From an uncultured Thermoleophilia bacterium (GTDB lineage: Bacteria > Actinomycetota > Thermoleophilia > UBA2241), in assembly GCA_963702475.1 (NCBI GenBank), contig CAVPCT010000001.1:1-64000 (forward strand): DNA of 64,000 nucleotides. Reading direction: 5' to 3'. The translations under genes and the position numbers were made by a program. Within the stretch, counting starts at the first letter, position 1. Every line of letters starts with the position of its first letter. Shown here piece by piece: positions 7,846 to 28,308 of this stretch. Below the pieces are notes generated by a model that ran no database searches, was not told the origin of the DNA, and saw only the letters and a program-made list of their open reading frames with translations.

Positions 7846-7961
7846 GCGGGAGTCAGCATCCTCGGGCACGGCTCTACACCCAGCCCGCAACCCGGACCCC
7901 CTGTTCCTGCTGGAGCAGGACGGGTGCGTCCGAGCTCCCGCGGCATACGTGTCCCCCTCGT

Positions 7962-7993
7962 GGGCCGCCAGCTCAGTCGGGAGAGCGCCGCCT
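7962..7993 (+). repeat. orphan 5' half of tRNA-Ala (att-like remnant)
   Basis: GGGCCGCCAGCTCAGTCGGGAGAGCGCCGCCT = 30/32 identical to tRNA nt 1-32 (18785-18816); similarity extends upstream through the promoter. Confidence 0.85.
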
Positions 7994-8028
7994 GAAGCCG
8001 CGGGACTCCGACCTCACGGGCGCGGTCG

Positions 8029-8967
8029 TCAGTCAATGATCGGCGGCAGGCAGAAGTCCTCAGCGGAACCCCGATCGCGACTGCCGCCGAGCACGCCGTA
8101 TGCCGCGAGCAGCGCGAGCGCCGCGATGATGAGGACCATGCCCGTGGCCTCCACCGCCGTGGGCTGCTCACCAAGCTGGAGCCACGAAGTCACGACCCCG
8201 ACGACGGGTACGGCGAGCGTGCCCAGGCCGGCCGCGCTGGCCGGCAGCGAGCGCAGAGCCACGATCCAGAGGCCTACGCACAGGGCCGTGGCGAGGACTG
8301 CCGAGTACGCCAGGCACAGCCAGAAGATGCCGGTCCACTCCGGCCGGCCGCTCTGCGCCAGCAAGGCGAGGGCGCTCAGAGCGACTGCTCCGACCGCCAG
8401 CTGCCAGGTGGTCAGCGAGAGTACGTCAGCTTGGGCCCGGCACTGCATCAGCTTGACCAGGAGTGCACCTCCCGCCCAAGCGAGTCCGGCGGCGACGGCG
8501 AGGATACCGCCGAGCGCGCCGCCGCTGTCCCACGGACGCACGACGAGGATGAGGCCGGCGAACGCGAGCGACACGGCTGGCCACTGGAGGCCGCGCAGTC
8601 GCTCGCCCAGGAACGGCCAGGCAAGAAGCAGCAGCCAGAACGGCATCGTGTACACCAGCACCGAGACCCTGCCGGCTCCGCCCACGCTGAGCGCGAGGGT
8701 GGCGAGGATGTTGAACAGCGCCGTCTGCAGCAGGCCGATCGGTACCGTCCATCGGAACGGCGGCGGGCGCAGCGGCCGCCCCGTCCCCATGAGCACCAGG
8801 AAGAGGCACCCGGTGCCCAGCGCCGTGATGAGGGCGATGAACGTGAGTGGCTCGGCGTAGTCGAGCGCGATCTTGCTGACCACCCAGCTGTAGCCCCAGA
8901 TCGGCGCGATCCCCGCGAGGGCGAGGACGCCCAGGTGACCCGTACGGTGCTGCTGGGCCTCGGCCAT
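8029..8967 (-). CDS. EamA/DMT family transporter
   Basis: IWGYSWVVSKIAL, ~10 TM helices, two EamA repeats. Confidence 0.9.
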   Translation of the reverse strand: MAEAQQHRTGHLGVLALAGIAPIWGYSWVVSKIALDYAEPLTFIALITALGTGCLFLVLMGTGRPLRPPPFRWTVPIGLLQTALFNILATLALSVGGAGRVSVLVYTMPFWLLLLAWPFLGERLRGLQWPAVSLAFAGLILVVRPWDSGGALGGILAVAAGLAWAGGALLVKLMQCRAQADVLSLTTWQLAVGAVALSALALLAQSGRPEWTGIFWLCLAYSAVLATALCVGLWIVALRSLPASAAGLGTLAVPVVGVVTSWLQLGEQPTAVEATGMVLIIAALALLAAYGVLGGSRDRGSAEDFCLPPIID

Positions 8968-9213
8968 GTCGCCATGCTATCCGACACTTCGCATCGTCGG
9001 TCGCCTCAGTCGTTGTCCGAGGTAAGCGATCCTGTCGATCCACGCGGAAACCCATGAAGGACGCAGTCCGGCTGTGCTCCTCGCACGCCTGCGCGACGTG
9101 TTCGCGCTCGGGTCTCAACGCCACTGGCATCGCCGGCGGGCCCGAAGGGAACACATGCCTACCGGCACCGGACGGCGCTTCGCCGGCCGCGGCCGCACAC
9201 GGTCATCTGGGAG

Positions 9214-26623: not shown

Positions 26624-27475
26624 AGTGTCCCCGCCACCCCCCTGGGGACCAACGGTGCGGGCGGACGGCTCGGCCCCCAGCTCACCAGCCGTCCGTCCGC
26701 CCGGCGTTCTCGCAGAGCAGCGAGGGCGGACCTGACGCCCGCGCCCCGACGAAATGCCGATGAGACGCCCAGTCGCGCTCCACGAGGTCGGCCGGTCGCG
26801 GGGTGTCGGCGTCAGGCGTCGTCGTGCGCACGGCCTTGCCGCGCCGCACGCCGCGCAGCCCCAGCTCGCGCATGAGGCGCCACGGTGCAGCGTGCCACGC
26901 GGATGCCCTTGCGGTTCAGCTGCCGCCACACCTTGCGCACGCCGTAGACGCCGTAGTTCTCCATGTGTACGCGCGCGATCTTGGTCCTGAGGTGCTCGTC
27001 GCGCAGGGCTCGGGCCGAGGGCGCGCGGTCGCGTGCGGCGTAGTAGGTGGAGGGGGCAAGGTCCATGACCCGACAGATCGGCTCGACCCCGAAACGATCG
27101 CGGTGGTGCTCGATGAAGGCGGTCATCTCGTGCGGGGACGGTCGAGCTCCTTGGCGAAATAGGCGCTCGTCGCCTTGAGGATCTCGTTCGCGCGCCTGAG
27201 CTCGGCGTTCTCCTTGCGGAGCCTCGCCTGTTCCTCGAGCTGCTCGCTCGAGAGGCCGCTCTTGCCGCCGATCTCCGCCGGCGCGTGCTTGATCCAGTAG
27301 CGCACGGCATCGGGGCTCACCCGAGCTTCTCGGCGACGCGACGCACGGCGCCAGGCTCACCGATCTCGGCGACCATGCGCACGGCTCTTTCACGCAGCTC
27401 CGGCGGGTAGGGAGTTCCTCTGGGCATTGGCTCCTCCTGGAAACTTGGAGCCTCCAGAACACCCAGCGCGCTTCA
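26621..27475 (-). mobile_element. IS3-family remnant (orfA + 5' orfB, internally deleted)
   Basis: [82 protein letters not shown]-starting ends at 26621 and 27475. Confidence 0.85.
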
Positions 27476-27575
27476 CATCCCTCGAGCGGGTATCTTCCTA
27501 GTGCGGGGTTGAATCAGGGCTGACGCGGTCCACTTGCAGACCCCGTGTGTGCAATTCAGAGGGGAGGTGAGTGAG

Positions 27576-27878
27576 ATGAAGGCGAACTTCCGGAGATTCG
27601 TGGCGAGGCTGGCCATGTCGGTCGCCTCGCTCCTTGTCCTTGGGGCGCTCGGGGCGTCTGCCGCGCTTGCGGCACCGATGCCAGTATCCCCTGGCGATGG
27701 GACTGCAGGTTCCCCATGGTGGGGACTAGCGGTTTTCGGCGTGCTGGCGGCCGCTTCATTGGCGTACGCGTTGACTGCCGAACGGCCCATGAGGGCAATA
27801 GAGGGCGAGCCATCAGTCGTGAGTCTGACCCGCGACTCGTCATCCGATACTGAAGAGCAAGATCGGAAGGCGGCCTGA
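27576..27878 (+). CDS. small signal-peptide + single-TM protein
   Basis: GGAGG RBS; signal peptide ending AALA, short Pro/Gly linker, TM, charged tail. Confidence 0.6.
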   Translation: MKANFRRFVARLAMSVASLLVLGALGASAALAAPMPVSPGDGTAGSPWWGLAVFGVLAAASLAYALTAERPMRAIEGEPSVVSLTRDSSSDTEEQDRKAA

Positions 27879-28263
27879 CACGAAGAGCCAGGGCGGCCTC
27901 CCCCCCACCACGCCGCGGGTGTGAGGCCGCCCACTCTTACGTCTTCTGACCCAGTACAGGGTGGATCATCAACCTGGCCCAAAGAGCGGGGTAGCGCGGC
28001 TTCCACAGGGGATGAACCCTCCGTCGGCGTCCTCCACGCCGACATCAACCGCCTCAGGTGCATGGGTCTACAGCTTCGCGGAAACCGACCGTTGCGGCCC
28101 CTGACTCCCATCCTCCCCTCAGACAGGAGCTAACGGACGGCAAACGAACGCAGGTCAGTCGACGTTGAGAGGCGTCACTCTGTGGCTATGGGGTCGGGGA
28201 CTTCACGAATAGCGCGACCCTGTCCAGCATTCAGTGGCTGTTACTAGCATTATCGCAGCTGCG

Positions 28264-28308
28264 TTTGCACGGCGGAGGTCAGCGGTTCGAACCCGCTGCG
28301 GTCCACCA
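28264..28308 (+). repeat. 3' half of tRNA-Ala (attR-like direct repeat)
   Basis: TTTGCACGGCGGAGGTCAGCGGTTCGAACCCGCTGCGGTCCACCA vs 18816-18860; starts exactly at the anticodon loop. Confidence 0.9.

Follow-up and report, generated by a model that had tools for sequence, protein, structure and literature searches.

Why should a single-copy tRNA gene stand between two detached halves of itself? This question was raised by the tRNA-Ala(TGC) gene of an uncultured Thermoleophilia bacterium (assembly GCA_963702475.1; 4.3 Mb, 70% G+C, nine contigs), which lies in the first 64 kb of contig C1 (CAVPCT010000001.1), the whole stretch analysed here and hereafter called the window. The gene, at 18785-18860 on the plus strand, is the only tRNA that ARAGORN detects in the window and, of the 51 tRNAs in the nine-contig genome, the sole tRNA-Ala(TGC). 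The genome also encodes tRNA-SeC and tRNA-Pyl (C3:641046). A preliminary description, made from the sequence alone, had reported a 5' half upstream of this gene and a 3' half downstream, and had proposed an integration hotspot open in two directions. We now judge it probable that two kinds of site-specific integrating elements use tRNA-Ala(TGC) as their attachment site, and that their insertions have piled up on both sides of it.

A BLAST comparison of positions 18700-18960 with the genome recovered both orphan copies, each with E 3.7e-9. The 5' copy (7953-7993, 38/41 identical) consists of 9 nt of leader followed by tRNA positions 1-32, and a profile built from 15 related copies extended it leftwards to 7878-7993 (E 1.5e-19). 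Its end at position 32 was as previously reported, while its extent, first given as 7962-7993, turned out to be wider. The 3' copy (28264-28308, 41/45 identical) covers tRNA positions 32-76. It begins at the first base of the anticodon loop, a known crossover sublocation, and its T stem carries paired changes (GCGG/CCGC versus GGGG/CCCC). Both copies are on the strand of the gene, each on its expected side. BLAST and profile together thus confirmed the two flanking halves and their direct orientation. Among 92 5' copies from relatives and metagenomes, 29 end at about position 26-32 and 58 at about 36-42, the pool being enriched for the latter group by the way the loci were fetched; the 3' copies of relatives start at positions 32-35. 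The exact complementarity of the two halves of the window, which both break at position 32, is partly a coincidence.

A trivial origin had to be considered: the copies could be similar by chance, could result from faulty assembly, or could be duplicate tRNA genes that decayed with no involvement of mobile DNA. Contamination of this metagenome-assembled genome (MAG) amounts to 6.5%, and some tRNA stretches are conserved enough to match elsewhere, for example a tRNA-Val at C3:1111046. Yet the matches have E values of 1e-9 to 1e-19, and the same architecture occurs in 24 of 54 genomes of the genus and in 46 metagenome contigs. Moreover, the 5' junction is bridged by contigs from other public runs (X1, 1518 nt, over 7402-8761; X16, over 7826-8162), one of these runs being possibly the source sample. 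This showed that the junction is real DNA and not an artefact of this assembly, a concern that the preliminary description had itself voiced about the 5' fragment. We regard the trivial origin as refuted and give it virtually no credence.

Relatives show how far such copies can accumulate. The DNA of 18600-18960, used as a query against 40 genomes of the same genus, gave many partial matches per genome, and the loci of four relatives (G006, G009, G011 and G040) were mapped for copies by BLAST and profile. In G006, the intact gene is accompanied by 23 orphan 5' units within 35.2 kb, all on the strand of the gene and spaced 0.46-3.7 kb apart (median ~1.3 kb). The row of G009 numbers 10 orphan units; in G011, 5 stand upstream of the gene and four 3' copies, 4-9 kb apart, downstream of it; G040 has copies of both kinds. 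With at most 14 candidates scored per genome, at least two matches to the full unit were found in the 24 of 54 genus genomes mentioned above. The downstream arm of the unit (see below), taken alone, matched 17 of 89 genomes of the order, all 17 in this genus (16 of 53 genus genomes plus that of the window), and was not found in 35 genomes of 10 other genera. Seven small near-complete genomes (G057, G044, G007, G004, G010, G060 and G063) carry the tRNA gene alone. Scanned for the downstream-arm motif, metagenomes yielded 46 contigs, every one with units, and viral contigs gave 0 matches both for this motif and for a pattern of tRNA positions 1-42. On three metagenome contigs (L145, L159 and L176), a unit without upstream arm adjoins the same upstream gene, of the SIMPL family, as would be expected of the outermost and oldest junction. 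Rows of 5' copies upstream and 3' copies downstream in genomes of the same genus thus bear out the proposed two-sided hotspot.

Aligning 22 full copies gave a complete unit of ~260 bp. It opens with an upstream arm, in the order (CGTCTTCACGG) ... CTGCAACC-N4-CGCAACCC ... GGACGGGTCTC ..., which is followed by a -10 box (TATACT), a leader, tRNA positions 1-41/42 and 15-18 variable bases. It closes with a downstream arm, in the order (C)TCCCCTCAAGACGCAAGAGACGAAGCGACG ... GGATCGGCGGT-CTGCAACCC-N4-CTGCAACCC ... GGTCGC-N9-GGTCGC. Both arms are common to the 22 full units and hold short direct repeats (CTGCAACC twice on each side, AGACG three times, GGTCGC twice), as would be expected of recombinase and accessory-protein sites in the arms of an integrase attachment site. 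The stretch from position 39 to CTCCCC is as long as in the real tRNA, and CTCCCCT corresponds, by eye, to tRNA positions 59-65, so that the downstream arm may begin with a scrambled tRNA 3' half. The copies ending at ~26-32 form a second class without downstream arm, to which the orphan of the window belongs.

The retention of promoter parts allowed another view, in which the copies would be kept as small RNAs or leaders headed by tRNA-Ala, or as portable strong promoters spread by homologous recombination, and would not be integration scars. All four 5' copies in the genome of the window retain a TATAnT -10 box and the leader CCCCTCGTG, and nearly all copies in relatives also have their -10 box and leader; the stretch from position 42 to CTCCCCT keeps a tRNA-like length; and riboswitch-type matches and ORF (open reading frame) starts follow some copies. 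This view, however, finds no family in Rfam for the unit, and the variable spacer folds no better than its shuffles (mean z -0.78 over 15 of 22 copies, the other 7 being skipped because the anchor motifs were missed in them). Conservation resides in short direct repeats rather than in helices, and both the strict co-orientation beside the intact gene and the link to an integrase would be left unexplained. We consider this view improbable, though an RNA or promoter role could be a secondary use of the copies.

That link to an integrase came from one metagenome contig, L153 (Ga0209585_10000162). It carries a unit without upstream arm (tRNA -2..42, 45/45), then the downstream arm, then an ORF, and beyond it a 400-aa tyrosine integrase gene facing the unit (PF00589 2.6e-25; phrog_1 2.4e-79) and a split primase gene. 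Such an arrangement is expected at the left end of a 5'-restoring element that has integrated into a virgin site. The preliminary description had suggested looking for integrase-bearing elements whose attP carries the tRNA-Ala promoter and 5' half; on this one contig, the 5' junction does stand beside an integrase. Together with the rows in same-genus genomes, this junction supports the existence of an element class that carries promoter and 5' part and adds cargo upstream of the gene. In G013, G002, G032 and G059, tRNA-Ala fragments have remnants of the L153 integrase (47-67% identity, 80-190 aa) within 1-5 kb of them, and contig C5 of the genome of the window likewise has an L153-type remnant near tRNA-Ala fragments. 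The only full-length Xer-like recombinases in G009 are two in number, and host enzymes of this kind could also be involved.

We then asked where the promoter of the working gene comes from. Arm motifs are present in the ~100 nt before the intact tRNA in five of five row-bearing genomes and in none of six row-less ones, which share only the -10 box upstream of the tRNA, the remainder being unrelated; eight single-copy loci match the profile only from the -10 box onward (model position 54-65). Because the upstream arm is confined to row-bearing genomes, the promoter and 5' part of the window's tRNA were probably supplied by an element. The preliminary description had suggested a chimeric tRNA, assembled from element-supplied halves. 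This is plausible and fits the ~100 nt found only in row genomes, but neither a free attP nor an empty site of this lineage was seen. When the six row-less genomes were compared with the window by tblastx, only the tRNA and, in G007, an AhpC gene lay near the tRNA among the matches listed. The GNAT gene and the 28309+ flank, which had been predicted to border an intact tRNA at an empty site, were not next to it in any of the six, again among the matches listed. Candidate joints in other runs (reads 7976>18767 and 15401>18764/18767, and contig X16 at 7993...18845) were rejected, as they have short sides (23-26 letters) or unknown letters in between; their most likely origin is in units or tRNA genes belonging to related strains, and they were not taken as evidence of excision or of an empty site. 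The parts without cover in this mapping carry no information.

On the 3' side, the far copy fits the original chromosomal half that the standard model would predict. Its flank and T stem differ from those of the intact gene, whose own 3' flank (CCTGGTTCACGCTCAGA...) is found again at C5:461944 and behind 3' copies of G011 and G040. The arm before the far copy contains an exact 13-mer, ACGGCAAACGAAC (28137-28149), that a 3' copy of G011 has at the same offset. We also noticed that a 33-nt stretch 60-90 nt downstream of the tRNA (18920-18952) recurs (30/33) at 32302-32334, upstream of a nitroreductase gene (31510-32268, minus strand).

The repeats with their polarity, arms and distribution, and one integrase-bearing example are the observations on which the following scheme builds. 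Downstream, elements of the ordinary kind would cross over in the anticodon loop and give the gene a new 3' half, from position 32 onward with its flank, the original 3' half being pushed 9.4 kb away to 28264-28308. Upstream, a rarer kind of element would have an attachment site made of an arm whose repeats bind protein, the tRNA promoter, positions 1-42 and a second arm. Crossover would take place in or beside the anticodon arm, after which the promoter and 5' part of the element would drive the gene while the displaced old ones would remain as an orphan. Repeated upstream insertions would build rows of orphan copies with cargo in between. The enzyme would be a tyrosine integrase of the L153 family, elsewhere gone or reduced to remnants, so that in the genomes at hand the packets would be passive or moved in trans. 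The window today keeps just one orphan per side, plus a probable arm remnant at 15383-15450. The crossover point is one that we infer, as is the action of the L153 integrase family on these sites.

What do the copies enclose? Between them lie one to three ordinary cargo genes and no recombinase. The cargo includes EamA transporters, MarR and PadR regulators, ABC pumps, glyoxalase, hemerythrin, NmrA, patatin, methyltransferase and radical SAM proteins, among others. G006 and G011 share one ORF with no assigned function (90% identical), which lies between units in each genome but has neither the same place in the row nor the same neighbours, and further shared packets end at most 60 nt from units. 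In 21 packets of G006, the first gene is co-directional with the unit in 12 cases, starting 10-70 nt after it, and faces the unit in the other 9. DUF6994 proteins are encoded downstream of full units, on the same strand, in 5 of 22 ORF-scanned metagenome contigs (L138, L147, L158, L175 and L182), within ~100 nt of the unit in the first three; they could be either a frequent cargo or part of the element's own kit. Two matches to the c-di-GMP-II-GAG riboswitch directly follow promoter-bearing tRNA-Ala remnants, with small ORFs downstream of the matches. One (G006, L009, 6119-6207, minus strand) follows a truncated unit and scores 62.7 bits, above the gathering score of 40; the other (C3, L019, 5020-5107, plus strand) follows an arm remnant and scores 38.1 bits, just below it. 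Orphan tRNA promoters may therefore drive riboswitch-controlled cargo.

Such rows call to mind an integron-like platform, in which a unit and its one to three genes would form a recombinase-less packet, moved singly by an integrase acting in trans, at the tRNA or at any unit, with the orphan promoters expressing the cargo. We entertain this only tentatively. In its favor, the packets are small and numerous (23 in 35 kb), hold varied accessory genes and no recombinase, and the same packet stands at different row positions in G006 and G011. The two-armed orphan unit is built like the element's own site, so that any two units could recombine. The 12 co-directional first genes and the two riboswitch matches after promoter-bearing remnants are also as this platform would have them. 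Yet 9 of the 21 first genes face the unit, the downstream arm is kept in only 9 of the 23 G006 units, and where attI has intI beside it, the platform has no linked integrase. The L154 contig, which begins and ends in units, was considered as a circular packet and rejected, its terminal units being only 85.6% identical; precise gain or loss of a packet was not seen either. With neither a circle nor a precise gain or loss, packet-wise mobility is suggested only. In its fullest form, this reasoning would endow a subset of the genus with a tRNA-anchored analogue of the integron, that is, tens of packets closed by ~260-bp sites and shuffled, captured or excised singly by a trans-acting tyrosine integrase, each insertion handing cargo to the previous tRNA promoter and giving the tRNA a fresh promoter and 5' half. 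This is conceivable, yet we doubt it.

Accretion of two kinds of elements at tRNA-Ala(TGC) remains the reading that we favor, and several points weigh against it. No integrase or remnant was found in the window, by Pfam on its ORFs or by tblastn with three integrases (best E 0.23): the upstream 7.9-18.8 kb gave no tyrosine integrase gene by either method, and the ORFs of the downstream 18.8-28.3 kb gave no PF00589 and the same best tblastn value. Nor was one found within the rows of G006, G011, G009 and G040 (Pfam and a PF00589 genome search). In all, the hunt comprised Pfam on 30+20+82+84 ORFs, the PF00589 genome search and tblastn, and neither Resolvase (PF00239) nor Y1 transposase (PF01797) had a match in any of five genomes. 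The other end of the L153 element lay beyond the sequence examined. The best full-length relatives of its integrase in 54 genus genomes are 44-52% identical, with no close one among them, and two of these adjoin tRNA-Val or tRNA-Ser, not tRNA-Ala. About one-third of the 5' copies, including the orphan of the window, stop at 26-32 without downstream arm, and an anticodon-loop crossover would account for this class only if deletions had followed. Packets down to 0.46 kb cannot be decayed whole elements unless each was deleted to its cargo. Contigs and reads of other runs and the ends of L154 showed neither a circular nor an empty-site junction. Last, a pyruvate:ferredoxin oxidoreductase (PFOR) block and the AhpC gene within the "upstream island" look like resident genes.

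This last point bears on the proposal that nifJ, the selenoprotein and the B12 enzyme at 8-18.7 kb would be acquired cargo, which was not supported in the form given. The PFOR gene and its neighbor (9205-13867) are found with 72-82% DNA identity in seven genus genomes. In seven aligned loci of relatives, homology ends at 9205-9238 and 12758-13868 and the neighbors differ there; a tRNA-Ala fragment was present within 10 kb of the block in only 2 of 32 loci checked, and the close relatives of the PFOR gene come from uncultured Actinomycetota MAGs. The block is not evidently cargo of one element. The AhpC-like gene, whose TGA sits at the expected catalytic Cys in a genome that has tRNA-SeC, immediately precedes a unit in G006 and G049, and the bare tRNA in row-less G007, so that it may be an old neighbor rather than cargo. 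The EamA gene has 88% DNA identity to a gene within the G006 fragment row, with many paralogues in the rows of relatives, and 17886-18680 is 94% identical to the tRNA-proximal gene of G009. The segment 15383-15450 contains the only exact CGTCTTCACGGTC of the window and one of its three plus-strand CTGCAACC copies, the other two being upstream of the tRNA. It was not reported by the profile at E<=1, and we assign it to an upstream arm with moderate confidence. Collectively, the 8-18.7 kb block is composite and not one acquired element; we read it as the worn remains of a row, possibly with trapped resident genes. Both islands of the window are partly decayed, having lost their integrase and carrying broken genes (Table 1).

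Table 1. Features around tRNA-Ala(TGC) in the window, and further copies on other contigs of the same genome (contig given before the colon).
Position	Strand	Feature	Evidence
7878..7993	+	Orphan 5' unit: degraded upstream arm, -10 box (CATACG), leader CCCCCTCGTG, tRNA-Ala positions 1-32; no downstream arm	BLAST, profile, by-eye alignment, bridging contigs
8029..8967	-	EamA-family transporter, convergent with orphan unit; cargo	Pfam EamA 3.8e-40
9214..13853	+	PFOR (nifJ-like, 1212 aa) and DHO_dh-like gene; conserved two-gene block	Pfam POR_N 7.6e-76 and others, DHO_dh 9.5e-9
14092..14526	-	SnoaL-like protein	Pfam SnoaL 7.2e-42
14731..15288	+	AhpC/TSA-like peroxiredoxin with in-frame TGA (FT-TGA-PFC) at 14929-14931, likely selenoprotein	Pfam on both halves
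15383..15450	+	Probable upstream-arm remnant (CGTCTTCACGGTC ... CTGCAACC), no tRNA part left	Exact motifs
15754..17562	+	B12-binding-domain protein (602 aa)	Pfam B12-binding 8e-9
17846..18726	+	Two overlapping-frame ORFs, tRNA-proximal	No family match below E 1e-3; faint DUF4082, E 0.0032
18673..18784	+	Upstream arm of working tRNA: GGTCTTCACGG, two CTGCAACC repeats, GGCGGGTCTCTCTGG, -10 TATACT, leader	Profile match 18696-18828, E 1.8e-31
18785..18860	+	Intact tRNA-Ala(TGC)	ARAGORN; genome's only one
18861..28263		Downstream island, lower G+C, no integrase	G+C 0.60-0.67 vs ~0.70
19044-19358		IS481/IS3-type transposase helix-turn-helix fragment	Pfam
20312-21257	-	Frameshifted DUF1638 gene	Pfam, translation
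21196-23805		Aldehyde:ferredoxin oxidoreductase broken by in-frame TGA at 22420-22422	Pfam, translation
23822-24838		3-Hydroxyacyl-CoA dehydrogenase	Pfam
25440-26396		Peptidase S58	Pfam
28137..28308	+	Orphan 3' copy (28264-28308) plus conserved arm before it	BLAST 41/45; arms compared
C3:604-861 and C3:6280-6517		Full units	BLAST/profile
C3:4599 and C3:4853		Arm-only remnants	
C5:479294-479165	-	Arm, promoter and tRNA positions 1-53	
C5:461944-461992	+	tRNA positions 45-76 and 17 nt flank, 49/49 identical to window	

Two other contigs of the genome hold further copies (Table 1). The two C5 pieces are oriented towards each other at a distance of 17 kb and have 9 nt (positions 45-53) in common; between them are an integrase remnant (C5:475578-475868) and a tRNA-Ser. 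We take them, tentatively, for a second tRNA-Ala(TGC) split by site-specific inversion at a T-arm site. On C3, two back-to-back IS630-type (DDE_3) transposase genes come right after the units (C3:7219-9389, L019), and could be what cut this stretch of row off from the tRNA. An exact CTGCAACC-N-CTGCAACC pair was also seen at C7:11376-11393 (minus strand), 75 nt downstream of tRNA-Glu(ctc), and these putative protein-binding repeats may serve elements at another tRNA. A genome search for CTGCAACC pairs with one mismatch gave 18 pairs versus 24 in the reversed-genome control, that is, no better; only the exact copies beside units are meaningful.

Transfer RNA genes are classic landing sites of mobile DNA, and nearly always their 3' end is the part replaced, since in this way the element can do without a promoter of its own. 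Here, a soil and sediment lineage of Actinomycetota would be using the opposite, 5' polarity repeatedly, so that an essential single-copy tRNA gene would run on a promoter and 5' half from mobile DNA. Its dense rows of small integrase-less packets resemble an integron made of different parts. Should the packets move individually, they would represent a second, independent route to a cassette-capture platform and would offer natural, compact attachment sites from which genetic tools for high-G+C bacteria could be made. Should they be immobile individually, the locus would still be an unusually rich case of tRNA-proximal island growth and decay.

How does this locus compare with known systems? 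Like integrons, the rows grow on one side, consist of small packets each ending in a recombination site, and have a resident promoter at the insertion point. Unlike integrons, they have no IntI by the platform (no PF00589 in or beside the rows of G006, G009, G011 and G040, or in the window), their gene orientation is mixed, and their sites are ~260-bp tRNA-derived units with direct repeats, not attC hairpins: the imperfect inverted repeats of attC were not found, the spacer hairpin not being above shuffles. Xer-dependent elements (IMEX, pdif modules) have one 28-bp dif-like site per junction; no AT-rich dif-like core was noticed in the consensus of 22 units, no dif model having been run. Accretion of integrative and conjugative elements (ICEs) and cis-mobilizable elements (CIMEs) at attachment sites, as for ICESt1/CIME of Streptococcus thermophilus, leaves integrase-less DNA between attachment sites, left by or riding with a tandem integrase-bearing relative. 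There, a protein gene or tRNA is occupied at its 3' end by one or two elements; here, the packets number in the tens and have promoter-bearing 5' tRNA copies. A full-text literature search found no account of such dense rows, with promoter-bearing 5' copies of a tRNA and packets lacking an integrase, which does not prove that none exists.

Closest are the islands at tRNA genes (tDNA). The preliminary description held that 5'-half duplicates are seldom described; they are indeed rare, and already catalogued, as Islander counts 3760 islands with 3' fragments and 159 with 5' fragments, of 3919 (PMC4383910, Table 1). Its 5'-fragment class has a co-oriented 5' fragment upstream of the intact tDNA and the island between, as seen here, and an element that restores the 5' part, as is probable here. 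An integrase is mandatory for Islander islands, which measure at least 2 kb and include only 4 tandems of three or more (PMC4383910). Unlike them, the present rows reach 23 copies, with packets down to 0.46 kb and none with an integrase. The window itself has the co-oriented upstream fragment (7878-7993) of the 5' class, and the co-oriented downstream fragment and anticodon-loop start of the 3' class, without an integrase inside on either side; for the 5' class, only L153 has one. Tycheposons of Prochlorococcus carry a tyrosine recombinase and a primase and integrate at tRNA genes, repeated integration pushing older material outward, and their islands scatter partial tRNAs and integrase fragments (bioRxiv 10.1101/2020.12.28.424599). 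An integrase and primase with a partial tRNA copy were seen here in L153 only; tycheposons belong to a different phylum, and a duplicated tRNA half and dense regular rows are not stated for them in the excerpts of that preprint. Tandem accretion at a tRNA gene is thus of a known kind; what distinguishes it here is its polarity, the 5'-restoring one, which is the rarer, and the unusually large number of small packets without an integrase.

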